Source: Chrysochromulina tobinii (taxonomy: Eukaryota). From it: a stretch of DNA of 62,587 bases. This document shows, piece after piece, positions 7,480 through 61,619 of the stretch (position 1 is the stretch's first letter; each line of letters opens with the position of its first letter). The stretch covers positions 1 through 62,587 of the forward strand of contig JWZX01002605.1 of assembly GCA_001275005.1 (NCBI GenBank), written 5' to 3'. Under the pieces are notes generated by a model. That model was not told the DNA's origin and did no database searches. It saw nothing but the letters and a program-made list of their open reading frames with translations. The position numbers and the translations under genes were made by a program.

Positions 7480-7745
7480 TTTGCTGCTGCCGATGAGCTG
7501 GGTCTCTGTCCTCGCGCGCGCCTTCTCGTCGTGACAAATGGCTTCCCGAAGCACAAGTCGCAACCGCCACCTCCTTGATGCAACTGGCAGGGACCGGTCC
7601 TACACGCATGCTGATTGAAGCAATCATCTAGAGAGATGATTACAATGTATTTCGGAACTCGTTCGCCCTCTGCCGCGCAAGGAGCTCGATATCTCTGGTT
7701 AAGGGTTATTCACACCGCATTCGCCTTAAAGATTGCAACTCTAGC

Positions 7746-29648: not shown

Positions 29649-31302
29649 ATGCTCATCGCGGTCGAGGGCTGCGCACACGGCGAGCTCGACAACATCTACG
29701 CCTCGCTCGCAGCCGTCGAGCAGCGGCACGGCTGCAAAGTGGACCTGCTGCTCATTTGCGGCGATTTCCAGGCGGTGCGCAATGCGGCCGACCTTGCCTG
29801 CATGGCGTGCCCGCCCAAGTACCGTGCGATGCAGACCTTCTACAAGTACTACTCGGGCGAGAAAATCGCACCCGTGCTCACAATATTCATTGGTGGCAAC
29901 CACGAGGCTAGCGCGCACTTGTGTGAGCTGTGCTACGGCGGCTGGGCCGCGCCCAATATCTATTACTTGGGCAGCGCCGGTGTTGTCAACGTGGGTGGTG
30001 TGCGTATCGGCGGCCTCTCGGGCATCTACAAGAGCAACCACTACAACCAGGGCCACCACGAGCGTCCTCCCTTTGACGAGGACTCGATGCGTTCCTTTTA
30101 CCACGTGCGCGAGACTGATGTCTTCCGGCTGCGCCAGCTGCGCAAGCCGATGGACGTGTTCCTCTCACACGATTGGCCCCAGCACATCGCCAAGCACGGC
30201 GACACGCAGGGCCTCGTGCGCCGCAAGTCCTTCTTGCAGCCCGAGATTGCGGATGGCTCGCTCGGCTCGCCGCCCGCCGCACAGCTACTGCACGCGCTCC
30301 GTCCGCGTTATTGGTTCTCGGCGCATCTGCACGTCAAGTTTGCTGCGGCAGTCAATCATAGGGCTCTGATCAGCGGCGGCGCCGCCGCCGCCAGCACTGC
30401 CGCCAGCACTGCCGCCAACGCCGCCGCGGGCGCGAGCGCGGCTGCTACGAACGACGTGACCAGATTCCTCGCCCTGGGCAAGTGCAACGTCCGTGGCGAC
30501 TTCCTCCAGCTCGTCGAGATCGAGGGCGATGGGAAGTCGGGTCCCCACGTGCTCTGCTACGACGCTGAGTGGCTTGCCGTGCTGCGCGCCACGGCACATC
30601 TCGAGAGCGGCATACGTGGCCGCGTGGACCTCCGGCCCGCGGCGGTGGCTGCTGTCTCCAACGGCAGGATTGACTTTGGGCCCACCCTCGAGGAGGAGGC
30701 GGAGGTGCGGCAGCGCGGCGGCGTGGCCCTCGAGGTGCATCTGAACTTCGAGCTCGATCTCTGATCCCTCTGATGACCTCTGATCGCCTCTGATGACATC
30801 TGATGGTCTGCCTCATCAGGTGCCTCTGAACTTCGAGCCCACCGCGGCCGCCTACGTGCCTGGCGAGTCCATCGTGGCGCCGCAGACCCCCTTTGCCGAA
30901 CACCCGCAGACGCTGCTCCTCGTGCACAAGTTTGGGCTCGCGCCCGACTTTCGCACGCGGCGAGGCGCTACACAGCCGGATCTCGCACAGGCGGGATCGA
31001 CTGCCACTGCGGCTGGCGGCGGCGGCTTTGGAGTTGGCGGTGGAGGCAGCGGCGTGGGGGGCGGCTTTCGGCCGCCTCATCCGCCAGGGAGGCCCCCGCT
31101 TCAGCTGCCCGAGCCTGTGTCAGCCTCGCTGCCCGCACCGCCACCCCCTCCGTTCACACCCCCTCCGTTCACGGCGGATCCCGCAGGCTACGGTTACAAC
31201 CCGAGCCAGGCAGCCCGGTCGGCGCCGGCGCATGCGATGGGTTTGTTGGGAGCGCTGCCTGTGATGACACTCGACCAGGAGATTGACATTGACGACGATT
31301 GA
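29649..31302 (+). CDS. DBR1: RNA lariat debranching enzyme; exons 29649-30734 and 30820-31302
   Basis: [59 protein letters not shown] and YDAEWL motifs; the spliced product continues [12 protein letters not shown]. Confidence 0.96.
30735..30819 (+). other. 85-bp phase-0 intron with duplicated splice-site sequence and 10-bp TCTGATNNCC repeats
   Basis: Intron begins AG|GTGCATCTGAACTTCGAGC and the next exon begins AG|GTGCCTCTGAACTTCGAGC. Internal TCTGATCCC TCTGATGACC TCTGATCGCC TCTGATGACA TCTGATGG; ends CCTCATCAG. Confidence 0.88.
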
Positions 31303-31781
31303 CATCTTTCATAGAACCTCCCACGAATACAAGGATCTTGGAAGTTTACCACCTCGTTGCTGTGGCCCCGGGCCTGGGGAATCTCTCAAGTGGTCTCTTT
31401 CTCGCTTGACTTTTTGCTTGACGCCGAATGCCACGTCACGTTACACATCTGGACATCACGCCACTAGCCGGCCGCCGTTGCTGACACATGAGGATGAGCT
31501 TGAAATGCACACCACGGTGCTGGACGGTGCTGGACGGTGTCCTCCGCTGTCGGGTGGTGTCTAGAACAGTACAGAGTATCCCGGTCGAGTGCGGTCCCTG
31601 TGTGACGAGCGTGGGGCGCGGCCTGTCCATACCGCCACCGGCCTGCTTGGACCCACACCCGTTGAGCTGAAACTTGCAAATTGCGCATTAAAGACGGTGT
31701 TCAGGCCATGCATGCATTCGCGTTACGATCCTCACAACGTGCTGAAAAGAGAGAAGCGCACTGAAGCGGTCGGAAACGCAG

Positions 31782-32756
31782 GGGCACGCTTACGCACAGA
31801 GCCGCCTCGCTGGCATGCTCTTCGCCGGGAGTGGAGGACCCAAGGACGAGGTGGAGGCGCGGCGGCTGTTTGGCCTCGCGGCCGCGCAGGGGGATGCTGA
31901 AGCGCAGTGCCGCCTCGCTGGCATGCTCTTCATCGGGAGTGGCGGACCCAAGAACGAGGTGGAGGCGCGGCGGCTGTTTGGCCTCGCGGCCGCGCAGGGG
32001 CACGCTGGCGCGCAGAGCTGCCTCGCTAGCATGCTCGACGGAGGGCGTGGCGGACCCAAGAACGAGGTGGAGGCGCGGCGGCTGCTTGGCCTTGCGGCCG
32101 CGCAGGGTGATGCTGAAGCGCAGTACCGCCTCGCTTACATGCTCATCGAAGGGAGTGGCAGACCCAAGGACGAGGTGGAGGCGCGGCGGCTGCTTGGCCT
32201 CGCGGCCACGCAGGGGCACGCTCGTGCGCAGTGCGGTCTCGCTGGCATGCTCTTCGAAGGGAGTGGCGGACCCAAGGACGAGGTGGAGTCGCGGCGGCTG
32301 TATGGCCTCGCGGCCGCGCAGGGGCACGCTCGTGCGCAGTTCGGTCTCGCTGGCATGCTCGACTTAGGGCTCGGCGGACCCAAGGACGAGGTGGAGGCGC
32401 GGCGGCTGCTTGACCTCGCGGCCGCGCAGGGGGATTCGACTGCGCAGTACCGCCTCGCTGACATGCTTCACCAAGGGCGTGGCGGCAGACCCAAGGATGA
32501 GGTGGAGGCGCGGCGGCTGGTTGGCCTCGCGGCCGCGCAGGGACATGCTGACGCGCAGGGCTTACTCGCTAGCATGCTCGTCTTAGGGCTCGGCGGACCC
32601 AAGGACGAGGTGGAAGCGCGGCGGCTTTATGGCCTCGCGGCTGCGCAGGGACACGCTGGTGCGCAGTGCAGTCTCGCTGGCATGCTCTTAAACGGGAGTA
32701 GCGGACCCAAGGATGAGGTGGAGGCGCGGCGCCTGCTTGGCCTCGCGTTCGCGCAG
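31782..32756 (+). repeat. 108-bp coding tandem repeat x9 (SEL1; one unit 111 bp)
   Basis: Same unit as 7878-8525; unit 7 has one extra codon (GGRPK). Confidence 0.95.
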
Positions 32757-33560
32757 GGGCACGCTGGTGCACAGGCCATCGTCGCTCGAATGCACAAGTA
32801 TGCCGCGCATGGCAGACAAAAGCTCGAGGCCGAGGCGCAGCGGCCGCGTGTGACCAAAGCGCGCAAAGGTGCATCCGAGAACGCTACGGCTCAGGTCGAG
32901 GACGCTGCTGCGCTGGCGGCCGCGGCAGCGCGCGCGGATGCGGCAATGGCAGAGCTGCTGGCTGAAGAGGATAGCGAGGCTGAGAAGGCGCGGAGCAAGA
33001 AGGGCAAGGCCAATGCCAAGAAGAAGGCTGACGCTCCTGCAGTGGCGTCAGCCAAATCCAGCGTGGAGCACGCTGTAGAGGTGAACGCTGCGGTATTAGC
33101 GGGCGCGAAGATGAAGGCGAAGGCACAGGCCGGGGCAAAGGCGGCGACCGCAGCTGAGGCTGAGGCAAAGGCGAGGGCCGCGGCACGAGCGGAGGCGGAG
33201 GCCAAGGCCGCCCAGGCAGAGGCAGAAGAGCACGCTCGCAATCAGGCGGAGCAAGAGGCTAAGGCGTCAGCAGCAAAGGCGCACGCTGCAAAGGAGGCCG
33301 CAGCGGTGGAGGAGCCGCCCGACCACTTCATCTGCCCCATCACGCACAACCTCATGATCGACCCGGTCTCGGCTGCGGACGGCCATACCTACGAGCGGCG
33401 TGCGATCGAGGAGTGGCTCGTCGGCCACTCGACCAGCCCGATGACGGGCGCAGGGCTCAAGATCAAGGACCTATTCCCCAATCACACCGTGCGTGGGCTG
33501 ATCCGCACGTGGCACGAGGCGCGGCGGTGCCGCCCAGCTGGTCCAGCAGCACGCCAGTAG
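31815..33560 (+). CDS. SEL1-repeat U-box E3 ubiquitin ligase (copy 2; 5' end frameshifted or truncated)
   Basis: Nine SEL1 repeats from 31782, same linker and U-box as copy 1 with near-identical DNA. In-frame stop at 31743. The homologous MHSR..TE..AVG N-terminus (ATG 31712) lies in another frame. Confidence 0.88.
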   Translation: MLFAGSGGPKDEVEARRLFGLAAAQGDAEAQCRLAGMLFIGSGGPKNEVEARRLFGLAAAQGHAGAQSCLASMLDGGRGGPKNEVEARRLLGLAAAQGDAEAQYRLAYMLIEGSGRPKDEVEARRLLGLAATQGHARAQCGLAGMLFEGSGGPKDEVESRRLYGLAAAQGHARAQFGLAGMLDLGLGGPKDEVEARRLLDLAAAQGDSTAQYRLADMLHQGRGGRPKDEVEARRLVGLAAAQGHADAQGLLASMLVLGLGGPKDEVEARRLYGLAAAQGHAGAQCSLAGMLLNGSSGPKDEVEARRLLGLAFAQGHAGAQAIVARMHKYAAHGRQKLEAEAQRPRVTKARKGASENATAQVEDAAALAAAAARADAAMAELLAEEDSEAEKARSKKGKANAKKKADAPAVASAKSSVEHAVEVNAAVLAGAKMKAKAQAGAKAATAAEAEAKARAAARAEAEAKAAQAEAEEHARNQAEQEAKASAAKAHAAKEAAAVEEPPDHFICPITHNLMIDPVSAADGHTYERRAIEEWLVGHSTSPMTGAGLKIKDLFPNHTVRGLIRTWHEARRCRPAGPAARQ

Positions 33561-34232
33561 CGCCACCGCACAAGCCGAGGGTGGCACTTTCGGGAAGAGA
33601 CAACTGCTCCGCCTTTGTTGCTACGCCTTGGCAGTGTAGCAACATCGCAGAGCTCGGCGATTGACGCAGAGGCGTGGAGCAAGCGTGGAGCTGCGTGGAG
33701 AGCGAGGGGCACGAGACGCAGACGCCTTGTCTAGGTGCGAGTTTCAGTCGGCAGTTGTTTAGTCACTGACACTGTACTACAACCGTAGTCCAGTGGCTGC
33801 GCATAGAGTTCGGTCTTTAACCACCCGACGCGCGAGGGCCTCCGCCTTTGCCCTTTGTGGCTCCGGACTCCGCGCGAGTCCGAACGCCGCGGGTCAACAT
33901 TCCCATTCATCCCAAGCGCATGATCTCGTCTGCCAACGCTCGGCTCCGCTCGACGAGGCTCATACTGAAAAAGTCCACGACGAGTTGCATGGCGCCGTCG
34001 TGGGGCGATGGCGGACACCCGGCACCGGACTGCCGCGTGGTCGGTGTTTTTATATCGTTTGATTCTTATATCGATCGTTCTTAAAATATCGGGGGCGCAG
34101 CAACTTGAGCTATCCTAATGGTTGAACGGCGAACGAGCGTCCAAACGCAACAACACAAGTGTAGTCCGACTCGCGACAAGATCATCTAGGCCGCGCGGAG
34201 CGATATTATATATAGATCGTGCTCGCGTACAA

Positions 34233-37200
34233 CTACAACACCGAACAACCGAGGCGATGGCAAAAGGAGACCCGCCTGATGTCGTGCTGCTCGCTTGCCT
34301 CGCCGGTTGCGGCCGTGAAGCCCACGTAGGCGCGATGAACCACGTCACCGGTCAGCGGGATGGGCTGCGTGCTCGGGTGCTCATAATTCACAGGCGGCCC
34401 CGCCGATTCTGTGGATACAGCCCCAGGCAGCATCTGTGAGATGTCGCAGCCACTGGCATCTGTCGCCGCGCCCCCGGCATCCGAGCTGGCGCCATCCCCA
34501 CTGGTCGCATTGCCATTGTTGGGGTTCATGCAGCCACTCCGCGGCGGCATCGGCAGCGTGATCGGCAGCGAGATCGTCGGGAGCCCCGTCTCACGAAACG
34601 AGATCCCCGTCTCATCAAAGTAAACGCTCAGCCGTCCTTGAGCGGGTGAAGCCGCCGCGGCTCCAGAGCTGGCGTTGACACTGGCGTTGACGGCGCGCGC
34701 GTGGCGCGCGGGCGGGAGGTATACGATCCTCACCTGATGCGGGAGGCAATCAAGGGCGTCATCAGAGATCATCAGAGGTCATCAGGAGGTATACGATCCT
34801 CACCTGATGCGGGAGGCAATCAAGGGCGTCATCAGAGATCATCAGAGGTCATCAGGAGGTATACGATCCTCACCTGATGCGGCTGGCCGTCATCTAACCG
34901 CTTCGGCTCCACGTGCCCTAGCAAGTGCTGCAGCAGATGCGCGTCGGCGGTGTTCACACCGTCGATGTAGACGGAGATTGCATGCTTGCGCTCCGCGACG
35001 AAACTGGACGTCACCTTGAGCGCCCCCGGCCGGCAGTTGCCGTCGGGGCCTTGATCGTTGCAGGTGGATGTCGTGACGGTACGGCCGTGGTGGTGGGTAT
35101 CAAATTGGATCGCCACACTCCGCGGGATGCCGCCACTCGTGCATCCCGGCACGCCCCCCGCTTGCGAGCCGGTAGCATACCCGACGCCGCTGCCCGCGCA
35201 CCCGACGGCGTCGAGGCCGATCGACTGCAAGACGACCGCAAAGCCTTCGCCTCCCACTCGACTCGGGCTGGTTGGGTCCGTGTCGGGTGGGCAGCGTAGG
35301 TCGGTCCGTGGCAGGTACGGGGCATTCAAGTTCGTGACCGGCAGCCGCTGGAACTGGCCGTAGCGGCCGTCTGGATTGGCCAACGGATGGGATGGGCCGA
35401 TACCGTAGGTTTCCTGCAGCTGCGGCGGCACTCCTTGCGGCGGGGGCAGTGGATCAAACGGAAGCGCCTCGGAATCGATCAAATAGTGCGTCAGATCGTC
35501 GCCGTTGGCCCTGAGCTCGTCCATCGAGATGAATGGCCGCTCCGCGCTGACGCGGCTGAGAGGATTGAGGCGCGCGGTGTCGTTGTAGCCAAACACTTCG
35601 TAGGGGCCAGTGCAGACTGAGGGCTCCGTGATGCGGAACGAGAAGTTGAGCTCGAAGCCACGCGAGTACGGCTGCGGCTGCGCCAGCCACAGCGTGCCGC
35701 GCTGGTACGTGTCGTTGGTGAGGCGAGCGACCACGTGTCCAGTATCGTCGCTCAGAAACTGTGTCGCGTGCCCAGCCTGCCAGCCGTTGACCGACGTCGA
35801 ATTGCACCGCGTGCAGCGGGCCGCACGCGCTAGGTAGGTGGTGCTCGCGCTGCTGGCCGCCTCGGCGGCCGCGGCGACCTGCTCGGCTGCTGCAGCGGCG
35901 GCAGCGGCGGCGGCCACCCTACCGTCTTCCTCGAGTGCGCTGATGGGGCCCGAGGCGGCGTCGGCCTCAGCTTCGGCGGCCTCTGCGGCGGCAGTCGCCG
36001 CGGCGTGGCGCATACAATCCGCCTCGCATGCAAAGCTCGCTGCGTCTGCTTCCCACCTGACCGTAAGTTCGAACGGCGTGAGCCGGTGCTGCGGCAAGTA
36101 GCTGTTGCTGTATTGAGCGCGGAACCCCGCGCCGTGAATGCCAATCACCCACTCCTCACAGGTGGCCACTGCACTACCGCCGCCCATCTCGGCGCCCCCG
36201 CTCATCTCGGCACCTCCGCTGCCCTCGGGATGGCAGTGCAGCTCGCTCGACGGGATCACAAGCGAGATCGGACTTCCCACCTTCTCCGCGATGAGATCGT
36301 ACCGCCCTGACGCATCTTCGGGCGCGGTGCGTCGACGCGCCAGGAGCCGCAGGCCCATGGACGAGAAACGCACGCTCAGCATGAGCCGCACGCCGCTGTG
36401 CGGTGGACGTACGCGGTAGTAGCGCATCTGATCAGGCAGCACGGCGCCCGTGGCGACGGCGCGCCCGAGGCCGTCGGTGGGCTCGGACACATTGGCGAAA
36501 GCGAGTGCGGCCGCCTGGGCGGCACTAGTGGATGGCAAGAGCATGCGTGTCTCGAAAGTCCACATGCGGCAGATGCCCTCAGCAGGCCCACGGCCGCAGC
36601 CGTCGGCGTGGCACGCGAAGCATCCAACCCGGTCCTGCACGACGCCGTAGGCGGTGTGGTCGAGCCCCAACGGCGACAGACGATCACGGCAATGGCCGCA
36701 GGAGGGGTTCGCGTTGACGCAGCCGACGACGTCGAGGGGATCGGCCACGGCCATCTGCTCACACGCGTACGTGTGCTGCAGCGGGGACGGATGGGTGGTG
36801 TGGAAGTCGCGCCCGTTGAGCGAGATCGCAACCTCGACGATGCCCGCCGGGAAGGGCGGCGTGCGGCAAAGCATGTGGCTCTCGCCCTTGTACATGGGCG
36901 CCGCCATCGCTACCACTGCGGATACGTGCTCATAGCCAAGCGCTGCCCCGGGCATCAGTGGCCGCCACTGCGCAAAGCGGCAGCGCGCGTCGCGTCGCTC
37001 GCCAAACACGTGCAGGTTCGTCCCCGCCACGCGTAGCTCAATGCCACCATGAGGAGGGCCGACGGCCGGCACGGCCTCGGTGGCCGTGACGCCCGAATAG
37101 AACGTAAAGAGGGGGGTGCGCACGTGCACAAAATTTTGGCCGTTGGCCGCCGCCGCGATGCGAACGGATGTGCGCCCCCGCGCCCCTGGCGGCGGCTGCG

Positions 37201-40200
37201 GCGTGAGCGGCGGCGAGCGACACACGGCGGCGGTGCCTCGAAAAAGGTCGACCGCAGCAAGGGCCATCGGCGAAGCGTACGCATCATGCAGCGCGAGAGC
37301 ACGGGGCGCGTCGCGGCATTTCAAGCCTCGCTGCACGCCGTGCTCATCGTAGCACAATCCGCCGAAGAGGCAAACCCCGAGCCCATCGCCATCGGCGGCG
37401 CCCGCCAACGCCGCGCCGATCTGCACGTCTGAGGCGTTGGCTCTGGTGGAAGCAGCCGCGGCCGCGGCGACTATGGCGGCGGCTCGTGCGGCGGCCGCGC
37501 GGGTGGTGCTACGGCGGCCGTGGCGGTTGAAGCCGATGCCGTACAGAGTAACGGGCGAGCCTCCATCAGAGGGCCCTCCAGTGGGCCACACCGCAGAGAG
37601 CTCTAGCTGCGTGTAGTAGTGGAATGGGAGGCCGAAGCCCACAGGGCTGAACTGCTGGCCGTTGATGGCCACCTGAACTTGGTAGCCGGAGCCCGGGTCG
37701 TAATTGAGGTCGTAATTGAGAGTGTTGGCGCCGCCTCGGAACGAGATGGTGGGAGGAGAGGGCAAGCAGCGCACGCCGCTCGCGTCCAGCTGCGTCACGC
37801 CGACGACGATCGCGTTGGCGAATCGGCAACGAGCGAGCGTGGCGTCGGTGTGATTGCCTGGGCGCAACCCATTGCCACGTACGCGCACTGACGTGCCACC
37901 TGAGATCGGGCCTCCCGAGGGCACAAGTGAGGCGGGCAATGGCTCCGGGTACACGTGGAAGGCATCGAAGGCGGTGGCCTTGGCTGTGGAGTTTGGAGAC
38001 GAAGAAGACTCGGCCGCTGCGGAGGCGGATCGCTCAAAATCGACCCCGTTCGGCGCGATGCTCACGAGAAGCGGCACAGCTGGCGGCCCCTCCTCGCCAT
38101 CGAGGCCGAGGAAGCTACCGTTGAATGGGGCCGTGGGCGCACAGACGAGCCACCGGCCGAACGGGTCCGCACGCAGCACGGACGTGCTTTGCAGAGGCTG
38201 AACGCTGCCATCCCCATCGTCGCTTCCCTCGACCTTGCTTCCAAACCCGCAGCGGGCGTCCTCCGCTGCCGAGCCCGCCGGGGCCAGCCCCGAGCCGCGG
38301 ATGGTCACGATGGTCCCTCCATGTGCCGGCCCGGAGCGCGGCTCCACTTTCGAGATCGTGAGCGCGGACGCATTGTAGAAGGCGAACGTGTGCGGCGCAT
38401 CCCCCGCGCTGTGGGGCTTCGTGGGTACCTCGAAGTCGATGGCATTCAGCGCGAGGCTGAGCCGCGAGAAGCAGACGTCGCACGGGCCGTCGGGGAACGC
38501 GCCGGGCGGCGGTGCGGGTGGCGATGGCGCGTCGGGCGGTGGTGCGTCGGGCGGCGGCTTGGCGTCAGAAAAGAGCGCCGGATCGCCATGCTCGCTGCTG
38601 GCGGCGTCGCTGCTGGCGGCGTCGCTACCATTCTCGCCACCACTCACGTCGGTGACGTTGGGCAGCGGCGCGTTCGCACAGGGCAAGGCTTCGCGCCCGT
38701 CCGCGCTGAGTACGCAGCACAGCAGTCGACACTCGTCAGGCGGAGCTGGCGTTGGAGTGGTCACAATCCGGACTCCGACAGCGTCCAACTCGCTCGCATT
38801 GAGTGGCAGCCGATACGAGGCGAAGGCCGCACTGCTCTCGTTGCCAGCGGCCTCGCCTCGCATGCGGGCGGCGCTCCGTCCGAACGGGTGGGCAGCCTCG
38901 ACGAGCGTTGTAGCCGCCGCCGATGAAACGTCGAGCGGCGTGCCGTCGACAGGATGCAATGGGAGCGTCGGGGGACCGAGCAGCGCCACGGAGATGGTGC
39001 CCACGCTCGCCCGCCCGCCGGCACCGAGTCGCAGTCCAGTGATCGTCAGAGGCGTGCCGCCGCGCACCGGGCCCGCCGTTGGTCGGATCCGTTGGACGTA
39101 CGGCGACTCGTAGAAATGGAATCGGGGAGCGGTGCTCAGATCCGCGGGCGAGTAGTCGATGCCGTTGAGCGACATGGAGACTGGGAGGGCCGCAGCGAGC
39201 CCTTGGGTGTTGCCGCCGGCGGTTAGGGTGATCGCCGAGAGCGGCGGCGTGGCGGCACATGCGATGCCGTCGGCGCCTGCAGTGGCAGCAATCGTCACGG
39301 CCGCGTCGCCACTGCCGATGCGACAGTTTGCGGCCCCGTTGGCGTAGGGTCCCCCGAGGATCGTGAACAACGTGCCGCCTCCGACGGGCCCAGCGGACGG
39401 ACTGATGCCAGCGAGTGCCAAGTTAGGATAGCAGCGCAGCATCACGGGGCCATCAAGGTCGACACCGTTGCGTGCAAACGACAGTGCCACACTGCAGTTA
39501 GCCTCCACGCCGCTGCCGGCGTCGCCGCTGCCTGAGCCGCCGGAGCCACAACCGCAATTAGGGATGGCCTCACATTCGACGACGCTATCACTCAGAGCCA
39601 GCACGAGCACGTCCTCCTGCATCGTGAGCGTGGTGGCTTGTGGCTTGTAGTAGCCAGCCTGGTAGGTGTAGCGACAACGCGCGAGATTCGTGGGAAGCCC
39701 CGGCGTCAGAAAGCCACTCCCATGAACGGTGAGAAGTGTGCCGCCGTCGACCGGTGCAGAGCTGGGCACGATGGAGGCGAGGGTGATGGACGTATACAGG
39801 AAGCTTCCCGCGACCACGACGTCAACGCCGCCGTTGAGGGAGATTCCCACTGTGACCGCGCCGCTTGCCGCCGCAGGCGATACGAACTGGATGCTGTCGC
39901 GAGACGCGCCGCGGACGATCGTGCTAGGAGGGACGCACGCGGAGCCTTGGCCAAAGACGACACACACTTGGAGGTCCTGAGGCAGAGGCGCGGTGATGAT
40001 GGACACGACAGTGCCACCACGAATAGGGCCGCCGGGCGGTTGAATGCTGCCGCTGCTGCCGCTGCTGCCGCTGCTGCCGCTGCTGCCGCTGCTGCCGCTG
40101 CTGCCGCTGCTGCCGCTGCTGCCGCTGCTGCCGCTGCTGCCGCTGCTGCCGCTTCCGCTTCCGCTACTACCGCTAGTGTCGCTGCTGTAGCCGCCGTTGC

Positions 40201-43200: not shown

Positions 43201-46200
43201 CGGTGATGATGCTACCGGCCGGAGGGTGCGCCGGGCCCCCGGTTGGGATGATGTCGGTCAGCGTGGGCAGAGGGTAGTAGATGAAGCCAAATGCTTCCTG
43301 CGCTGCCTCCGCGGCGGTCGTCTCGGTGGCTCCAAGAGTCGTTGGCATTTGGACACGTGCAAAGTCCTCTCCGTTGAGGGAGATGAAGAGAGGGACAGCA
43401 GTGACCTCGGAGGCGGCGATGGAGGAGGCCGTGAGATTGTTGACGAGCGGCGGCACGGCCGTCTCCGCCCACCCCGCGCCTTCTGCCGCGTCCACTTCCG
43501 TCTCGCCATCTGCCTGAGAGGCGAGCAGCACAGCCCGCCCTCCCACTACCACCCGTGTGCGAACCTGTGAAGGCAGAACCCTCGAGCCAGCAGACATGGC
43601 GGTGTCCGTGGCGGAGGCTGCGCTGGTCGAGTCAGCCGCTAAAGGCCGGTCCAGCCGGCACGCTGTGCCGGTCGAGTCGAGCGGGTCGCACGTGTTGGGT
43701 GCGCTGCACGTCACACTCCCGTCCGCGCGCGCACTAGCTCTTACGACCAGCCGCCCGAAGCGACAGAGCGTCGTCTCGAGCTGCCCGAACGAAGCCAACC
43801 CTCGTCCTTGCACGACCACCGTCGTGCCGCCGTGCGCAGGCCCTCCCCGAGGGGAGACGCCATGGAAGGCAATCGAGTAATACTGGAACGTGAGGGCGGT
43901 GCCCTCCGGGCCGGTGGCATCCAAGGCGGTGGCACGAGCTCCCGTTGAGACTTGATCCGTAGAAATGGTGTCCATGGTGGCAATGGTGGTGCCCGCCGTC
44001 GCAAAGGGCAAGTAGTCCACCCCATTCAGCGTCACATCAACGGTCGCATGGCTCGAGAAGCCCTCAGGAGCGGACGGCACAACGCACTTGAGCACGCGAG
44101 AGCTCCGGAAGATGACGGGAGTTGATGCCGTCCACGCTGCTGGCCATGGCGCACCCAAATCGTCGGACCCCCCGGACAAGTAGCCTGCCGCGCCCCGGCC
44201 GGCGAGCGCCGGCGAATGAGAGGGCGGCGGGGCGTAGCGGAAGCGACAGAGCTCATTGCCAGTCTCTCTGGAAGCGGAGGAGGCCATGGTTGCGTTGGGC
44301 ACGGAGTCGAAGCCCTCGCCTCGCAGCGTGAGCAACGTCCCTCCACCTGTTGGCCCACCCGTTGGATGCAGCTCCGCCAGAGAATAGTGAAAGTAGCGGA
44401 GGGTGCCCACAGGATGGTAGTCCTGATCGTTGAGAGTGAGAGACACGTCAACGGTCGGCGGCACAGGGGAAGCGGTTGAGGCGATCTCCGCCGCAACGGC
44501 GGAGATGGCGGCTTCTTCGACGCGTCCGGAGGAGGTAGAAGAGGCTCCGACGCCGCTGGCCACGTACAGGTCATCGGACCCCGCTGCCACCCTCGCCCAG
44601 ACCACCGCCGCTGCCGGTACACGGCACAGCATCCGTGCCGGTCCCTTGCGCATAGGGCGTACCGTCCGAGTGCCAAAGCGGCAGCGGCTCGTCATCAGAT
44701 CTCCAAAGGTCCCCAGATTGGTAGCGTCGATGGTCAGAACGGTGCCTCCCGTCGCCATGGCGAGCTGCGGAGAGAGGGCCTGGACGATCGGGGACGGATA
44801 GTATGTGAAGTTGACTGCCGAGACAGCGTCGCCGGAGCTGAGCTCGGCGGGAGCGCCGTCCCGGCCGTTGAACGTCAACTGCACGGCAACCGAAACGTTC
44901 CCATCCATGCATTCCCCACAATCTGAGCAGTCAGTGTGCGCCGCGCAGAACGGCGGCACGTCGCATAGCCCATCCATGGACCAGAAGCAGCTATTATCGG
45001 CAGCAGAGCTGTCCGCAGCTGCCCTCGCCATCAGCCTCGCGGCCGTTGGGAGCTCAGGAGTGATGCAGACGAGCCGCGTCGCATTCTGCACCACAAGGGG
45101 CGCCACTTGCTCGCCCAGCATGCATCTCTGCGTCTCGACGTACCCAGCCAGCTGGACGGCATCCACGGCCTCCCAGCCCTCCAGTGCTGTGGAGATGCGC
45201 AAGCCGAGGACGAGGGGGGACGACGTCGAGTCAACGTACCCTTCGACCACGGCGCTGCATCCCAGTCGCGCCGCGCCGGCACAGCTGCATGGCTTGACGC
45301 TGCCACTCGAGTTGAAGGGGGCCGGTATGCGCTCGCCTCTCAGCCCGATGAGCTCCACTGTCATCACTGCCGCCGGGTCGGTAGCGAGCAGCACGCGCCA
45401 TCTCCATGGGCGCACCGGCCGCGCGAAGCTCACCTGGAGCCAGTCGGGAAGGTCGGTCCCGAGGGCCGGCATCCAAGCCAACGGCTCAAGCCGCTCTCGC
45501 ATGCATCCTGTGGCATCTGGAGGGCCGGCAGCCCGGCTCGCGGAGCCATAGGCGTCGCTGTACTCGGAGCGTGCGGTGGCCGCGGCGGCCCATTGCTCGA
45601 GGTAGGTGTCCTCCTGAGCTACTGGCCGAAACCCCTCACCGCTGATCGTGATGATTGTGCCGCCGCCCATGGGCCCTCCACTGGGCATCACCCGTTGCAC
45701 TACGGGTGCTGCCCATCGATCAAAAGGTAGTTCTCCTTGGAAGTCAATGCCGTTGAGAGCGAATTGAACCAAGTAGCGACCGACGAGGGTGGTCGAAGGG
45801 AGTGTGAAGACGAGATGGGTGGCGTCCAGGGACTGGAAAGGCTGTGCTGCGCTCCACTGCTCGCCTGAACCAGCTGCTGAGGGAGCCGAGAGGGCAGCGG
45901 CAGCGCTCGACAGTTGCCCGTCGGCCTGAGTTCCCGCCGTCAACGACGTCGGGACGAGGCTCAGGCGCCAACGAGGTTCCAGTGGAACGCCCCCATTGTC
46001 CAGTCCCAGCCCTCCGAGCGAATCAAAGCCGCGCCCATGCACCGTCACCAACTGCCCGCCGTGAAGGCCGCCGCATGTGGGTGCGATGGAGTCGAGCGCT
46101 GCGGCGTAGAAGGTGAAGATAACGGCACTAGAATTGGAGGTGACATTGGCCACGTCTGCTGAGGCCGCCGCCGCGCTGTGATAATCTTGCCCATTGAGCG

Positions 46201-49200
46201 CGATGGCAAAGGCGGCGCGCCCCACCGGATGGGTCATGGGCCCGCGCCGCCGCGGAGGGGTGGTGCACAGCACGTACGTGTCGTTCTGGAAGTACGCCGG
46301 TGTGAAGGTGTCAGCTCCAAAGCGGCATGTGGCAGTGTGAAGCCCGACCAGTCCGGCAAACCCCGTGCCGCTTACTGTCACGTTGGTACCGCCCAGCACG
46401 GGGCCGGCCGTTGGCCATAGCCTCGAGAGAACGGGTGGGGTGTAGTAGCGATACGTGATGGCTTGATAGGTCACGTGAGGGTCGTCGCCCACGCCGCCAA
46501 ACCACAGCGTGCCGTCCATGCTCGCTTGCAACTCGACGGTTTGGTTGAAGGCGACGGGGGGCGTGCGACCGTAGAGGGCGGCGTCGGTGGCGTGATCCAG
46601 ATGAGCGCCGTCATCACGAGGATCGTCACGCATGTAACCGACGATCTCGAAGCGGCTCAGATTGCTCGGCGGATACGGCGACGTGGCCGAGGCGCTAATG
46701 GTGGTCGTGTTGCCGCGGCCGGTGCTGCTGCTGCTCAGAGCGACGGCGGCGAGCCGCTCCTGTGCACGCAGCATGTCAGAGCTGCCCAGACGCCCGCGGT
46801 CCGATCCAAGGCGCTGAAAGTCCAGGGCCGTGTTCCCACTCTGCGCCTCCTCCTCTGCCTCCGCTTCGAAGTCCTGCTCCAATCTCCTGCCTCCGGTCGT
46901 CTCGACTGCCTCCGGTCTCCGGGAGTCGCCGCAGTAACTGACGCACGTTGGATCGCCCGGTGGGCGTGGAAGCCGATACGTGTACAAGGTGGAGGCGCCG
47001 TTGTCGAAGCTGCAAGCGCAACTGAGCACCTGCGTCCTCCACAAGCAATCGGACCAGCTAAAGGCGAAGCAGACCGTCGACAGTTGCGGAGCTGCACCTG
47101 CGGCCGGGTGGGCATCGAGTAACCATCCCGCGGCCTCGCTGCCACAGCGCTCACCAGCGCGAGGAGCCGTGTTGAGCAGGCGCTTGCCGGCGGCACCGGT
47201 GAAGCGATACCAGGTGGCATTGTCCAAGCTGCCGTGCAGGCTGATGGGCGAGCGCGCCGCGGCAGAGGATGACGACGACGAGGCGGCGCCATTGTCGCAC
47301 ACAGCCGTGGAGCTGGCCGCGGCGCTGCTGGGCCCGATGGCCGCCTCGGCAGTGGCAGACTCGTTGGTCAGCCGTCTCCAGCCCTCGTTGAGCTCTGTCA
47401 CCTGCTTAACCGACCGAGGGCACTCGGCATGGCAGAGCGGCAGCATGGCGATCCCCAAGCCCACCTCCTCCTTGGCGAGCCAGGCGCCCTTGGGTACGTA
47501 TCGGACCTCACGCATGGCGCCCAGCCCGATCCCGTGGAGCGTGATCGACGAGTTGCCCACGGTGGGCCCGCCGAGAGGCGAGACGCTCTGAAGCGTCGGC
47601 GGGAGGTCCTTGAGATGGGCCGACTCCGGCAGGCTACTTGTCCGCAGTGCCATCGCGAGCTGCGAAGCCTCTTCGTCGTTGTCCGCAGAGCCCCTCGCGA
47701 GCAACGCTCTTCGGCGGGTGGCGCCTGCAACGTCATCCCAGTAATTGCCAGCCGTCGCGTTCCCCATATTGTACGCGTCGTAGCGCGGCTCAGCGGGTGG
47801 GGGAGGCGGGGGTGGCACCGCCTCGAGTACAGCTTCGCCCTCGAGGCCGAGCGCCGCGTCAAGCGGCTCATACGACAGCTGCCAGAGCTGCCGTGCGCTC
47901 TCGCCCGATACGGCGCTCATGAGCACCCGTCGCCGGCCCGAGTCAGCCCACAAGAGCGCCGCGGCATTCCAGGAGGTGCTCGCGCCTAAGGCGAGATCGG
48001 AATCTCCTTGGGCGAGATCGGAATCTCCTTGGGCGAGATCGGAGGCTTCGAGGCTCGCCCCAGCCGTCGCGCCGCTCGCGCCGCTGACGCTGGCGGCGTT
48101 CACGGTGGAGCCTTCGCTGGCCTGCGGCGCCGTGGCCGTAGAGAAGGCGCTGTGGCGGGCGGCGGCAGAGTCGTAACCAACAACCCCTTCGGAAGCGCCC
48201 CGATCGGCGGCAACGGCGCCGGCTCGAAGCTCCGGTAGGTACCTGCTGCCTGCATGGTCGAGCGAGAACCCAGCGGGGACTGCCGCCGCCCCGGATGCCA
48301 TACCCACGTCTCCCTGCACGATCACGATGCACTCAGAGCCATCCAGCCCGCACCGGTAAATGGCGCGGGAGGCGGCGACGCTATAGAAGAGGTGCGGACC
48401 GAAGGTCGTCAGCGCGGAGGGGGCGATGCCCCGCTGGATGGTGAGCACGGAGACGCGGAGGGGGGTGGCGTCGGTCGCGTGCGCCTTCTCCTCGGCGACC
48501 ATGAGCAGCGACGCATTGCCAGGCTGGCTGACGGACACGTACGCGGCGTGCACCAGACCGTCGGCGCTCACGACGGCGCCAACAGCACGTGAACCACGCG
48601 GCAGTGAGGACAGCACCACCTCGCGCCCGCGCCCGTCGAGGAAGCTTCGCTCGATCTTACAGCCGCCGCCCGGCGCGATCGCCGTCCAGTACAGCCGCGC
48701 CGTAGGCCGATGCAGAAAGAGGCTGTCCGCCTGCGCGCCCACCGGTATGCCCTCGAGCCACACGGCGTTCGCGAGAGCGTCGGCCGCCTCCTCGGGCTGC
48801 GTGGTCACGCGGCCGCCAGCGATCCTGGCGCCGGGGGCGTCTGCAAACCGGTAGCGCCGCAGCAGACCCGAACGCAGCACGTACACGCGCTTGTCGAGCG
48901 TATCCATTGCCAAATGCGAGCGCCCATCGATGGGCAGGGCGCGAAGCACCGTCATCTCCGCCTCCCAGGCCGCGAGCGCCTCCGCCGCCGCCTCGTACTT
49001 AACGCGCGCAGTGCGCTCGCGCGCCGCCGCACGTGCGGCCGTCGCCTGCGCCTGCACAATCTCCCACGATCTCGAGGCGCGGTCGGCGAGCGTCGCCTCG
49101 AGCGCGGCCGCAGCGGCCCGGCGTGCCGGCTCGGCGCCTTGGGTGAGCTCCTCGAGCATCGCCTCGCGCCGCGCGACGAGACGAGTCTGCAAGTCGGAGA

Positions 49201-52200
49201 GGTCGCGCGCCCGCTGCACCACCGCCCCACCAGCACATGCGTGCCCCGCGCCGGCACTCGCAGTCGCGGGACCACCCGCCGTGTGGTGGCATCCCCACAC
49301 GTGCACCAAGAACTCGTTGCGGTACTGAAAGAGCACCGGCGGCGTGAAGCCCGTGTAATCGATCCCATTCAGCGCGACAGCCAGCTCGACGGAGCCCATG
49401 CACTCGGAGCGCATGCAGCGCGGGGCACGGCAGCGCATCTCAAGGTGTGAACGGTCGGGGCGCAGCGGGTCCGCACTTGGCACCAAGACGAGACGAGCTG
49501 GCGAGTTGCCCGCGAGCCCAAAGCGGCAGCGCAGCAGGCTGCCCTCGTCGGCGTCGGGCGCTTGGGATGGCGGCGCCGCCGATTCGTTGAAGCTCGATGC
49601 GCCGTCCTCGTTCGTGGGAGCAGCGGCTGCCTCTGCGAACATTTGGGCAGCTTCGACGAGATCTGGCGCCAAAATGGCGACCTCCACCTCCTCCTCGGTC
49701 CCTCCGAAAAGCGGCGAGATGGTCGCGTTGGCCGGCGCGGGATAGTACGAGAAAGCGCCGAGATGGGCGGCGTCCACAAAGGTCAGCCCGTCGAGGGCGA
49801 GAGAGACGGTGCGCGCCTCGCCCGGCTGCCACGTTGAAGGCATCGGCGGCACGTCGCACGAGATCGCGCGGCCGTAGGGATCGATCCACGAGACGGATGT
49901 GAGCACGTTGCCGAGGCGGCAGCGCGCGACCGTGGCGTCGGCGAGGCACGCGTGTAGCCCGTGGCCGCGGAGCGTCAGCGTCGCTCCGGTCGAGGGGCCA
50001 CGAAGAGTGCGAGCCGCCGTGAGCTGTGGCTGGCGGAAGTAGACGATCGGCACGGAGGTGTTCTCAAAGGTCATGCCGTCGAACGAGAGGCGTAACGAGA
50101 TTCGCTCGTTTGGGGTTCGGCTCGAGAGCAGCCGCATCGCGCTCGCGTTCGGCAGCGGTGGCACTTGGCATCGGAGTCCGGCCGAATTGTGCCGCAAGGC
50201 GCGCGAGATGCCCCTGTCGAGCGGCATACCGTCTACGAGGAACTGACACATCACCACCGAGGCGAGGTCGTCGCCGAGCAGATCGATGCTTGTGCCACCC
50301 TCGAGTGACACGCCCGGTGGACGGGAATTCACTCCGTACGCGGCCGAGATGCTGAGACCAAGGCCGCACCCGTGCCCGCTCACCCCGCAGCCGCCGCCCG
50401 CGAACATGGACGTGCCCAAGCGCAAGGGCGGCTGATAGCGGCCGTACTCTAGCGCGTCAGGGCCCAGGGCCGCCATCGCACTGATGTTCGGATCCGCGGC
50501 GGAGCATGAGCCGATGCGGAGCGCCAGTCCGCCGAGCCACCGAGTACGCTGCTGCGGCGGTGCGATCGGTGTGCCGTCGTGAACGTACGGAGGCAGAGGG
50601 CACTGCCGTACGACGAGACTCGGCGCTCCGCCGATGGGCATCGAGCGATAGCCCTGTGTGCCGTTGAGATAGCCCTCGGTGATGGTTGCTCCCTCAGCGA
50701 CCGCGGCCGCAGCCACGGCGGCCTCCTCGGAGAGCTGCAGCTGCCGAACCAGCCGCCCACGCTCCCGCTCCTGAAGCAGTCTCGCCACGTGGCCTCCTCC
50801 CTGATTCGATCGTAACTGCTCCATCATGGTGGTCTCCGCCGCATCCCTCTCAACTGCACGTGCCATGACCTCGGCGGCCTCCAACCCCTCTGCGACGGTG
50901 CCCCGCTGCAGGAAGAGCACACGGTCCATGCCCAAGTCGAGCATCGGCCCAAAGGGCTCGCCCTCGACGAGCTTCGGATGTGCGCCGAGTGCCAGCGCGG
51001 CCGTTGAGTATGCTGAGGAGCCTCGGGCGGTGCGGATGCCGCGCCATCCCGCCAATGATGATGGATGTAACCCGACGACCGGCGGCTGCGCTTGGCCTGT
51101 ACCGGGCGGCCTCGGCCACGCAAGGGTCACGCCAATGATGGGCGGGTCGGAGTAGGCTGGCGTCCCTGGTGCTTGACTGGAGTCGATCATGGTCAGGACA
51201 AACGCGCGGCAGTACATCTTGTCGAGGTCGGTGGCAGTCGGGTTGAGACAGTCAGTCCATTCGCCACTGTAATCCTTGCCCAGCGGCGTGGAGAAGCTGA
51301 AGATCGCATCCACCTCGGGTTTGGTCAGCAGCTTGCCTCCTTCGCTCGTATGAACGTCGAACGTGAGATGAAACTGGTCGCCGTCGCCAAATTCTACGTC
51401 GCCATTCATCGGGTCTGCCGGCACAAAACCGACGAGGCGCGGCGCCTCGGAGGTACCGAATGTGCCGCTGAGCGTCAGGTTGGTCTGGACGGCGTACGCC
51501 TCTGGAGGTGAGGGTCCAGAGGGACCACCGCCCGAGGGGATTGTGGCGAGGCGTGCGAACTCCGATCGGATGACGCCCGGCTTCAAAGTGACTCTGGTGA
51601 TGCCCACGAGCAGGCGAAGCACGCCGCCCTCCGCCTCCGGCACGTCTCCGATCGTGCCGCCACCAGAGTCGCCCACCGTGAGCTGATAGGTGGACATGTC
51701 GAGCCAGCCGCGACCCGTGTCGGGCGCCAGCGGCGGATCGAAGTCGAAAAAGTCGAAAACGTCGCCCGGCGGCCGATCCGTCGGCGCGTCGAAGAGGAGT
51801 TGCATGCGGTCACCCTGCGCGGGCCTGGCCCCGGCGCAGGCTGTGCTCACCTGATGGCAGAGGTAATCAGGTACTCAGAGGTACTCAGAGGTACTCAGAG
51901 GTACTCAGAAGTCATCGGCCCGCATCAGGCAGTGCTCACCGGACTCCCACCGTACACGGCCTGCATCGTCGGGGTCAGTGGAATCACCTCCGTTGGGCTC
52001 GTTGGGACAGGGCCGCAAGCATCCACGGCACGAAACGAGATCAGTTGCGGTGCGAGCCTACCGCCGAAGCGGCCGGAGACGGTCGCCTCGCGCGCGAAGG
52101 GGTCTTGCGATGCAAAGGCGTCGGCGCAGCGCACTTGCTGCGACCCCGGAGCGCAGACACTGCAGCACGTGGCGGTCGCGGCACGGTTGAGGAACATGCG

Positions 52201-55200
52201 CGACGTACGCACCCTGGTCAAGCCCACCGTCGGCCGGGTGGTTTGTGTATTGACCGCCGTGACGGCGAACGTGGACGTGTCCTCCCACTGGCCCGTGTAC
52301 TCGTTGCCCAGGTGGTGGTCAGTCTCGAAGATGCTGTCGATGTACGCCCTGCCGCCGGAGACGCCCCGACGACCGTCGTCGGTTGAACGATCGAAGACCA
52401 TGCGGATCACGTCTCCACCCGACCACGCCGTGTTGAAGTTGTCGTAGTCGGACACGGTCGCGCTCTCGAAGACGGGCGGGCCGGGCTTGCCAAAAAAGGT
52501 CTGGCCGAGCACAAGCTCGCGGTTGACCGGGTCCGACGCGCCAAAGGACGAGCGGATCTGGCTTTCCGGTTTGATCCGCATCTTGGAGGGGACGCCGAAG
52601 ACTTCGTGGGTCCAGCTCGGGTTGCCGCTCAGGATGGTGACCACTAACGTCATGTTGTCCGGTAAGAAGCGCGCCGTGTACAGGTCGCCGATAGACGGTG
52701 TGAAGGCCAGAAAGAAGTTTGCGTACGCCATGGTGCCCTCCTGGGGGGGCGGCGGGCGGGCGGTGAGTCCGCGACTCGTCTTTCGGTCGAAGAGGATTCT
52801 AATCGTGTCGCCCGCGCTCGGCACGCTGTCCGAGTTGTCGGGGTCGGTGCCCGAGTATGAGACGACCCTTGGCGCTTGCTGCCGTTCGCCCCAGTCGCCC
52901 GTGAGCGGCACGCGGTCGTCACACCGCGGGGACTGGCGACCGAGGGAGCGTACGTCGCCGAGGACGCGCACCCAGATCGAATCTCGTGTCATGTACTTGC
53001 CGTCCAAGCCCATGTACGCGTCCGAATTGATGACCGGCATGCGATTCCACAAGCGGCCGCGCGAGTCGGTACCGATGCGCGCCGTCCGGTCGAGGACAGT
53101 CATCACGAAGGTGGAATCGTCTGTCCAGTAGCCCTCGTAGTTACGTCCAAACGAGGGCACGCGAATCGCCGCCTCGTTGGGCGCGAAGTAGTCGAACTCG
53201 AAGAGCGCGTGGATGGCAGCGGCGTCGTAGCGCAGCCCGGTGGCGCCGGCTGTCCTTGGCCGAAACGGGTCATCATTCCCTCGGGAGCCCTGGCGCCCGA
53301 TGTAGGTGGGCATATTGAACTTGAACGTGAGAATGTCGCGGTCGGAGTAGATGAAATCCCCGTTGTCTGGATCGGAGCCGTTGACCCAGAGCAAGCGTGG
53401 CTTGGCATGCGTGCCGAGGCTGCCTCTGATGCGCAACGCCTGCGAGGCCGTGCGTGGGGCGACAAAGTCGAGCCGGTTCGCCGACCTGAGTGGGGCATTG
53501 TCCGCGAGCCAAAAGCGCGTCGTCGCATCGAACGTGTCGTTGATCTGCGGCGCGGGCAGGTACCCATCGCGCACGTGGACCCGGAAGGTGGAGGTGTCGA
53601 GCCACCGCCCGTCATACTCGATGCCCAGCGGCTCGGACACGCTCAACACCGAGTCCACGTACTCGCGAGGCTGCACCCCCCCTATCAAGTCCGTCGAGAT
53701 ATTCGTCGGTCGGTCGAAGAAGAGAGTCAGTGTGTCGCCGCTCCCAAACTCGAGGTCGCCCGCATCGGGATCGTCCCCAACGACCGCCGCGAGCAGTGGC
53801 GCCACGCGTGGGTCCTTTCCAAAATCGGAGCGCGGGGAGATGATGGGCGCCGTGGTGAGCACTTGCATGCACGGCAGGTCATCAGAGTGGCAATCAACGT
53901 ACCTTTCCAAAGTCGCCCGCGAGCCCCTCGGCCGTGACGACCACGTGCGCGGAGGTGTTGCCGCGCATCGACGGGTGGATGCGCCGCGGGTGGGAGAGCT
54001 GGTAGACAGGCAAGTCGCTCCTATACGAGTCAACGGTCGCGTTGAAGTCGGCGTAGGACGCGCGGAAGAGCAGATGGCCAGAGGCGGAGGTCCAGTAGAG
54101 CAGCGCATGGATCGGGTCGATGGCCAGGCCGGTGCAGAGCGCATCACGTACGAACTCGAGCACGGGGATGCGCGCTCGCAAGCCGCCCAGGAAGATGCGC
54201 CGTCGTGAGCGCTGGCACCAGAAGACAAGGTCGCGCCGCCAGTCAACGACGAGCCTCGAGTCCTCATCAAACCAGTCGGCAGGGTCGGCACCATCCTCGG
54301 GCAGAGCCCTCCCGTCGACCAGGTGCCGCCTCCCCAAAGTACCGTCCTCTCGCGGATCACTCTGATTGTAAAAGTGGATCGCGTCGTCCTGGGCTTGCCA
54401 CTGATGGCCCGGCGCCGGCGCGGGCGCCGACAGGTCGAGCAGCTGCGGCACGCGCGTGCCGTCGTAGAAGACGAGCAGCTGACGATCCCGGCTCGAGTCG
54501 AGGCCGAGCTTCCACAGGGAGGTCTCCCCCTGCGACTCGTTGCCGAACTTGAGCACGCGCACGTTCGTCGCGACATACGAGCGGGGAAGCCGGCGCGCTC
54601 GGCCGTTGGCCACTCGGTCCGCCGGGGCTGAGATAAGGGATCGATGTGCCGCGGCTGTCTGTGCCGTGGCAGCTTCGCTCTGGGCCACCGCGGCGGCGGC
54701 GTACTCGCTGTACGTCTTCGTAGGATCCAACGGCGGCGGATCCACCAATCCCACCAGAGTGGCCGTGAGCAGGTGGCCCTCTTGGGTGGACCAAAAGACC
54801 TCTGAGGTATGCGCCCGGAGCAGCGCGGCGGTGACGCGTTGCGTGCCCACTTGCGCGTGAGTCGGCAGCAAGGCCTCGTAGGCTATCCTCTCGGCGGTCA
54901 CGTTGGGCAGCCCGATCGTCATGTTGATTTCTACGCCGTTCCTCAGGTACACGAGCCTGGTGCCGTTGGCGTCGGTGATGTTGGTCGCATTGGGCTCCAT
55001 AGGGTAGTTGCGCATGGCCTCGGCGAGCTCACGGCGGAAGCGCGCCGCCGCGTACTCGTGCACGGCCGAGCGGGCTAGCAGCGCGAGGGGCAGCTGGCTG
55101 ATCGTGGAGAGGCGCCAGGTGGCGTTCGCGTCCGCGACCGCGTCGCCGTCCTCCGTGGGCACCCAGTGCATCAGCCGAGCCCCATTCGCGTCCCAAAAAA

Positions 55201-57612: not shown

Positions 57613-58173
57613 TCAATTCTTCTTCTTGCTCTTGAGCGCGGCCGTCGCCTTCGTCGTCGTCCCTGCCTGCTCTGTTCTGCTCTCCGCCCACTGCTTGAGA
57701 GGATCTGCCGCCGCCCATGGGCGCTCGTACGTGTGCCCGCGAAGGTAGATGAGCAGCGCCTTATTGTCCAGCAGCTGCATCGGCTGCGAGACTGACATGA
57801 CCATCATCGGCTGCGTCCATCCCCACACTGAGTAGATAACGATGGCCACAATGGCTCCCATCACATACTGCATCTGCGACTCTTTGAGTTTGGCCACGTC
57901 GTAGGCGCACGCGGTGCACGAGCCGTCCGCCGCCTTTTTGTCCTCCGCCAGATTAATCATTTTTCCGGGGTTGGCAACTCTCGTCTGGTCGTTGAGCGTC
58001 AACGCCCGCCGCATGGCCAGCTGGATGAGAAAGTAGCCGCCGAGCATGACGGTCCCGAACACCATTTGCAGCAGCAGCAAGTTCTGAGGATCGGTGAAGT
58101 CAGTCTTCTGCGCGAGCCACAGGATCGGCAGCATGGCCAACTGGCGCATCAGTTGGACAGGAGAGCTCGCCAT
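57613..58173 (-). CDS. SND3: SND3/PHO88 family (SRP-independent ER targeting) membrane protein
   Basis: ~186 aa with YDxxKL, hydrophobic hairpin, QPMMVMSVSQPMQLLDN..LIYLRG..ERPW and a basic C-terminus typical of PHO88/SND3. Confidence 0.8.
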   Translation of the reverse strand: MASSPVQLMRQLAMLPILWLAQKTDFTDPQNLLLLQMVFGTVMLGGYFLIQLAMRRALTLNDQTRVANPGKMINLAEDKKAADGSCTACAYDVAKLKESQMQYVMGAIVAIVIYSVWGWTQPMMVMSVSQPMQLLDNKALLIYLRGHTYERPWAAADPLKQWAESRTEQAGTTTKATAALKSKKKN

Positions 58174-58339
58174 GAGGGATGAGGCCACGGATCACACACG
58201 AGCCGTGAGGGGCTTTCCTTTCTTGTACATGTAACTCATGTACCGCTTCTTGGCCGCGAGACACATTACAGACAAGCCGAGCAGTGAGGAAAACTTCGAG
58301 CTCGAGCGCCGTTCCGGTCACTTGACATCATCGCACACA

Positions 58340-61332: not shown

Positions 61333-61619
61333 GCAAAGGGATGATGGATGAGACGCAAAGCAGCAATCCTCCACTTGGGAGAGGTGTCGACAAAGCGCCC
61401 ACGACGGCGGCAATTGTTTAGAGTGCTAACGCCGGCTTCCCCACCCCCGTATGTCGTTTTTTGTCGTGTGTCGTTTCGGTGGAGAGGAGCTCTTACTTTA
61501 GTCACTTTAGTTCTCTAGTCTCAGTCATGTACAGGACATGTACATACACTGTCTCCTTACCACATGTGACGATGGTCCGGTCAAAGTACGGACTCCGGTC
61601 CACCTGCCGTGCTCGGCCG

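Follow-up and report, generated by a model that had tools for sequence, protein, structure and literature searches.

The origin of new spliceosomal introns is a long-standing question; mass gain is credited to transposon introners, and the case for break repair as a source is built on sporadic examples. Introners are known in Micromonas, Aureococcus, Symbiodinium, Polarella and metagenome-assembled genomes (MAGs) of marine Chrysochromulina (10.1101/2020.10.14.339549; 10.1101/2022.06.06.494994; PMC11282704), and in the sections of the literature consulted they have fixed target-site duplications (TSDs) of 3-8 bp, often terminal inverted repeats (TIRs), and similarity from end to end. One Chrysochromulina MAG family is described as lacking TIRs and having a TSD of 4 bp; marine Chrysochromulina MAGs carry up to 827 introners among the matches listed, which comprise 30 of 214 places and give counts only (10.1101/2022.06.06.494994). 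Here, we analysed a 62,587-nt stretch of Chrysochromulina tobinii DNA (assembly GCA_001275005.1, contig JWZX01002605.1, positions 1 to 62,587, forward strand; hereafter the window), in which four introns belong to a family that duplicates 10-62 bp of host sequence and whose fillers are variable pieces of shared modules, among them arrays of a 10-nt unit (the decamer). Like known introners, it is a repeated, intron-creating family that co-opts splice sites from the duplicated target in several registers. It behaves like an introner in the broad sense, with spliced introns at new positions (gain was tested at the DBR1 site only), but it has neither the TSDs nor the TIRs of DNA-transposon introners. 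The table of a 2025 survey gives 0 introner families for C. tobinii (PMC12130899), and the pipeline of a 2022 survey removed low-complexity families (10.1101/2022.06.06.494994); surveys that require end-to-end similarity and drop low-complexity families would miss this one.

Other described systems share parts of this design. Emiliania huxleyi fam24, also from a haptophyte, is ~70 nt long with annotated 10bp terminal direct repeats and a mechanism entered as unknown; it and Pavlovales fam1 and fam11 co-opt the 5' and carry the 3' splice site, as here, but number only 5-7 copies each, and the likeness is to their table descriptions alone (PMC12130899). Break-repair gains in Daphnia, Aspergillus and Drosophila resemble our introns in junction direct repeats, filler DNA and lack of transposon features, but the excerpted account presents them as isolated events here and there, in which the filler is unrelated (often mitochondrial) and repeats of 5 bp upwards were counted; junction repeats in Drosophila were not enriched (19/77 vs 26/100), whereas those found here are long and highly enriched, and the filler is a recurring intron-derived family (PMC3296678). 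Polymerase theta, as well as non-homologous end joining (NHEJ), produces tandem duplications from offset nicks, and those made by theta have microhomology and, now and then, an insert templated in cis (PMC5730883). All three features recur here, but that system is engineered mouse cells, its inserts are occasional and the available text draws no link to intron gain (PMC5730883). Fungal same-gene duplications likewise yield near-identical introns within one gene, but they are rare (82/1610 multi-copy introns), and no long target duplication is described in the portion at hand (PMC3609843). No description of this intron family was found in the literature searched, which took in neither papers behind subscription nor bioRxiv supplements or sequence files placed online by the authors.

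The original prediction described four introns of shared design with junction duplications of 14-28 bp, and their coordinates, GT..AG ends and repeats were verified exactly in the window. Their lengths are 85, 140, 89 and 88 nt, and frame analysis placed all four in phase 0, as proposed. The first lies in DBR1 and the others in a giant gene on the opposite strand:

30735-30819, + strand: 85-nt intron with duplicated exon-2 start (donor), decamer array and CATCAG acceptor (sequence; RNA in 1/3 runs; site empty in relatives).
30733-30753, + strand: left copy of its 21-bp duplication, with 1 mismatch (repeat analysis).
30818-30838, + strand: right copy of the 21-bp duplication (repeat analysis).
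34734-34873, - strand: 140-nt intron made up of a pair of identical 70-nt units (34804-34873 and 34734-34803), removed together (frame; RNA in 3/3 runs).
34855-34882, - strand: first copy of its 28-bp repeat with AG/GT; the others are at 34785-34812 and 34715-34742 (repeat analysis).
51851-51939, - strand: 89-nt predicted intron with duplicated exon start, four variant decamers and CATCAG acceptor (sequence, frame).
51926-51940 and 51837-51851, - strand: its 15-bp repeat (repeat analysis).
53815-53902, - strand: 88-nt predicted intron of a donor-carrying subfamily, with AG from the duplicated upstream exon end (sequence, frame).
53902-53915 and 53814-53827, - strand: its 14-bp repeat (repeat analysis).
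53847-53870, - strand: second filler module, with a 24-nt core starting GCATGC (122-123 occurrences in the locus sample).

The 28-bp repeat is exact and contains both AG and GT, and the 21-, 15- and 14-bp repeats have 1 mismatch each; a 14-bp repeat with one mismatch was reached by 0.11% of 19,425 random GT..AG pairs in the giant gene. The exact decamer has 4 occurrences in the whole window, every one within one of the four introns. Neither the decamer nor a long junction repeat was found in the MIC10-like introns or in the Kelch intron (from 15752), in line with what had been claimed of them; the Kelch junction repeat, read by eye, is 3 nt. The intron at 53815-53902 bears the second module and matches four other loci across ~55 nt counted from the donor.

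The host genes were delimited as follows:

29649-30734, + strand: DBR1 (lariat debranching enzyme) exon 1 (Pfam DBR1 and Metallophos; homologs).
30820-31302, + strand: DBR1 exon 2 (homolog alignment).
34233-57760, - strand: giant IPT/TIG-repeat gene, four exons (Pfam; 7,736-codon frame open after splicing).

Excision of all three giant-gene introns yields a single open frame of 7,736 codons, which stops if any one intron is kept or if just one 70-nt unit of 34734-34873 is removed. When junctions were checked in RNA, contigs skipped the 140-nt intron in 3/3 runs and the DBR1 intron in 1/3 (a single low-depth contig), with part of the latter retained unspliced in one RNA-run contig; skipping of neither was seen in the DNA run. 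Runs X17-X20, which contained almost no matching words, were left out. Splicing was therefore observed for two of the introns, and those at 51851-51939 and 53815-53902 are predicted from sequence. The identical units of the 140-nt intron lie head to tail in the assembled sequence, with contigs that do not bridge both. Summed depth in the DNA run reached 31,490 and 17,133 in two decamer bins vs ~70-190 in unique bins, which points to a highly abundant repeat but should not be read as a number of copies.

Intron gain was assessed at the DBR1 site by ortholog alignment, which found the site empty. It was read through by 21/21 scorable non-conspecific representatives (22 examined, P0002-P0023), with 0-1 extra residues in 10, three fewer in 1, and 5-54 more, within a variable loop, in 10. 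Several representatives begin inside an apparent intron and are thus likely unspliced genomic calls; two, a transcript and a gene model, are uninformative on introns. The intron is present in all 15 conspecific records listed (cluster of 75, 40 of them read). Since relatives read through the site and conspecific records carry the intron, it is lineage-specific and, among these records, fixed.

The wider family was surveyed in metagenome loci (prefix L) selected by the decamer pattern, so that densities in the genome-wide figures are inflated. The pattern matched 144 stretches in 3/64 parts of the metagenome collection (~3,200 estimated overall). From 135 loci, 3 with low guanine-plus-cytosine (GC) content and 13 duplicates were dropped and one was trimmed, leaving 119 loci that, with the window, comprise 676,595 bases; conspecificity was shown for overlapping pairs only (94-99.8% identity). 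Three acceptor cassettes recur, namely decamers ending CCCTCATCAG, the GCATGC-start second module ending CCCCACAG, and a third ending TGCATGCAG. A duplicated exon start at the intron start (score of at least 10) accompanied 56/125, 34/73 and 10/26 of them, respectively, or 100/224 in total, as against 1.3%, 0.4% and 0% under shuffled pairing, which places junction duplication above chance in these loci, although the cassette filter admitted some tandem units. Isolated module clusters, examined unanchored, were flanked by a repeat in 114/264 cases vs 3/511 in the control, and the 107 higher-score clusters showed an exact splice register in 69 (chance 30%) and none in 38, many of the latter being truncated matches or secondary duplications. 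Filtered sets superseded the first unanchored catalogue, where primary events had been mingled with tandem units and with matches of arrays to themselves.

Filtering gave 88 independent precise introns (median length 81 nt) with duplications of 10-62 bp (median 25), 40 of them perfect. The duplication supplies the donor in 53, contains AG/GT in 17 and supplies the acceptor in 18, so the earlier claim of long, variable duplications that provide splice sites holds across the family. Phase 0, which had been taken as a shared trait, proved a bias but not a rule: phases 0/1/2 were assigned to 49/17/14 of 80 called introns, similar to the near-60% phase-0 bias reported for introners, with noisy calls in that the coding model picked the opposite strand for 17/87. 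Duplication and filler lengths are negatively correlated (rho -0.60, n=88; -0.57 in 24 perfect copies), a relation that could stem from selection for a certain intron length or from duplications scored as too short.

These data bear on the proposal that the introns are older and the repeats secondary, a minisatellite having entered introns already in place and local tandem duplication having carried the edges of exons into these. Intron edges do commonly bear secondary duplications, unit numbers vary between strains, and a duplication is lacking in about half of the cassettes; Emiliania introns are reportedly rich in 10-11 bp tandem repeats. We nevertheless consider this account unlikely, given the DBR1 site, which runs uninterrupted in all 21 scorable non-conspecific representatives (0-1 extra residue in 10 of them), the primary cases in which the first copy follows plain exon and is the sole source of a donor, and the 40/88 duplications that are still perfect.

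Fillers were diverse. The original prediction of decamer fillers was correct for part of a broader family, which also includes the second module, donor-carrying and splice-site-free forms, and antisense or in-frame insertions. The decamers are a heterogeneous set (the commonest variant accounts for 535/1765), many fillers carry none, and acceptor-ended, donor-started and middle-only fillers are all present, with no end common to all inserts. End-to-end similarity extends over ~55 nt in one donor-carrying subfamily, and across the family the 5' third is host-derived. Fillers are common to unrelated genes, which rules out pure tandem duplication of an AG/GT segment, with an intron wholly derived from exon. 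A further donor-carrying subfamily with an 18-nt shared start occurs at four loci (L031 - 10747, L036 - 594, L046 - 6605, L054 - 4087; minus-strand counting), and at least one member has ~38 bp of duplicated upstream exon end. Separately, a 12-nt unit overlapping the second-module core forms short tandem runs in apparent exons of many loci (e.g. L010, L024, L056, L062), which suggests a possible coding counterpart of the intron fillers. The second module had 0 matches in prokaryote genomes and 1 in viral contigs (L136 4495-4554, module plus acceptor), likely host DNA filed as viral; the decamer pattern also had 1 match in viral contigs, discarded as chance (34% GC). The antisense decamer peptide had 75 protein matches, and the family explains a class of false gene models, with read-through decamer peptides.

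Filler ends provide a test of two enzymatic sources. A classical TIR DNA-transposon introner with decayed ends is hardly credible: the donor-carrying subfamily is near-identical over ~55 nt and two of the four window fillers have a 5-6 bp inverted match from decamer start to CATCAG end, but the best inverted matches in the four fillers are 2-6 bp and lie away from the filler start, and duplications of 10-62 bp, as opposed to fixed 3-8 bp TSDs, already largely refute it. Filler starts occur at every decamer phase (in 20/54 the core is no more than 1 nt away) and thus define no fixed terminus, in agreement with the absence of TIRs noted originally. Similarly, a telomerase-like enzyme with an internal RNA template, adding decamers de novo at breaks, is very improbable. 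Pure-decamer fillers with microhomology at both ends do exist, but the decamers are heterogeneous, with intron-specific variants shared by neighbours, many fillers have none, and counts change after insertion. Rfam searches of three loci (L056, L014, L037) gave no match at gathering score; sub-threshold C/D-box matches were explained by CUGA/UGAUGA words in the decamer, and a resemblance to a hammerhead core had no match.

Several signals point instead to repair. Mean microhomology was 2.0 nt for 5' junctions (n=24) and 2.4 nt for 3' junctions (n=15), as against 0.39 and 0.35. Rare 15-mers were common to 10/81 intron pairs within 1.5 kb, 3/58 at 1.5-6 kb, 0/14 beyond and 143/7827 between loci, and examples of neighbouring introns have identical 40-nt ends but different exons. 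Predicted open reading frames in L027 and L044 contain fillers that are antisense or in frame without splice sites, and with duplications, the antisense cases being few. Perfect tandem duplications without filler numbered 155 in 676,595 bases (96/155 in frame) vs 0 in 528,321 shuffled bases. In overlapping strain loci, exons are near-identical and the numbers of decamers and units differ, which indicates that the count reflects later expansion. Intron units also occur stacked head to tail in two to several copies with zero-length exons, their number differing between strains, and are candidates for recursive splicing:

L009 4408-4743, L056 9276-9684, L025 1157-1425 and L042 9348-9640, + strand: stacked intron units (locus survey).
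Window 34734-34873, - strand: stacked intron units (sequence).

The family represents a real and probably genome-wide process of intron gain, the footprint of which is unusual. Repair of staggered breaks, with inserts templated by existing introns and later selection for spliceability, is the best fit to the duplications, microhomology and sharing between neighbours. Staggered-break fill-in was one of the options named in the original prediction, and we hold this reading with about even confidence. Two offset nicks ~25-35 nt apart would create a staggered break, the fill-in of which would yield the 10-62 bp host duplication. A broken end would anneal within another intron, often nearby and guided by microhomology, and copy its 3' part, middle or 5' part, after which the copied end would rejoin at the start of the overhang. 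Inserts would land in both orientations, and selection would retain those that splice exactly, plus a few in-frame ones, with GT from the duplication and AG from the filler, the reverse, or AG/GT inside the duplication. Every surviving intron would serve as a new template, such that the family feeds itself, and decamers and whole units would later expand and contract by slippage between repeats. The enzymes may be polymerase theta-like or of the NHEJ pathway.

The main competitor is target-primed reverse transcription (TPRT) by a non-long-terminal-repeat (non-LTR) or Penelope-like enzyme on short RNAs, either excised introns or repeat-tailed RNAs antisense to the modules, which would leave variable long duplications and truncated fillers; we view it as possible but doubtful. 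Variable TSD length is given as a TPRT signature in the excerpt consulted (10.1101/2021.04.23.441226), and the duplications observed here vary in length. A fixed RNA end would suit the sharp GCATGC edge and the 26-61 nt (median 34) that separate donor and module, and the strong bias towards the sense strand and the sharing within one gene agree with an RNA template acting in cis. A Pavlovales introner family that co-opts the 5' and carries the 3' splice site is tabulated as non-LTR with Chlamys as best hit (PMC12130899). Set against this, the inserts have no end in common, the three registers have different fixed ends, and the sharp edge lies within the second module only. No poly(A) was seen, and 334 acceptor flanks showed no shared continuation past the acceptors (no 11-mer in >2 loci). 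No single fixed element end, tail or master copy was found in this sample, which covers a minor fraction of a genome. Of the partners proposed originally, a crude motif scan of the 0.68 Mb turned up no reverse transcriptase, and the three loci submitted to Rfam gave no RNA family.

A number of observations weigh against staggered-break repair. Conservation at the 5' edge of the second module rises sharply, from 0.66 or less just upstream to 0.97-0.99 at GCATGC, and foreign host sequence is rarely captured, with at most 16/83 elements having an unexplained segment, several of these being decamer variants. More capture would be expected if switching into genomic introns were random, and a defined template would be the better fit here. 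Opposite-orientation neighbours are rare (8/412 adjacent pairs <400 nt), non-coding insertions seem scarcer than random insertion predicts, as judged by a crude coding model, and the similarity of neighbours could stem from later gene conversion. The microhomology samples are small, gain was tested at a single site, and no empty/filled polymorphism was seen within the species in overlapping strain loci or conspecific DBR1 records.

Staggered-break repair admits a stronger version, which we advance tentatively and rate below an even chance. The family might be an element-free autocatalytic generator, in which host break repair copies branch-point/acceptor cassettes into staggered breaks and introns breed by the thousand without transposase or reverse transcriptase; the duplications would also permit exact loss and head-to-tail stacking with zero-length exons. 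If true, such a generator would also seed the coding minisatellites that haptophytes carry in frame. Since the family can be counted and combines long duplications with microhomology and local templates, it allows large-scale tests of the repair route in an apparently cultured alga.

The window is eukaryotic and has 59-73% GC per 2 kb; a value of 63.4% is given for C. tobin in the part of the genome report consulted (PMC4580454). The nearest named relatives are DBR1 of Prymnesium parvum (59%) and a protein from a Prymnesium sp. MAG (44%), and one protein encoded in the window is on record in NCBI, UniRef and EukProt. A 192-aa minus-strand frame at 57613-58191 overlaps the open start of exon 1 of the giant gene, the start codon of which is therefore uncertain. 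A second giant gene, with IPT/TIG plus REJ-domain, occupies window 1-7599. Two Sel1-repeat/U-box genes built on 108-nt repeats lie at window 7632-9335 and 31746-33560, and the high depth of DNA reads over them suggests many paralogs. At window 33024-33167, 144 nt were skipped by RNA contigs in 2/3 runs, with non-canonical ends and many substitutions, likely from a paralog. Finally, window 59281-61425 encodes a ThiF-TatD fusion, the relatives of which are nearly all metagenome proteins.

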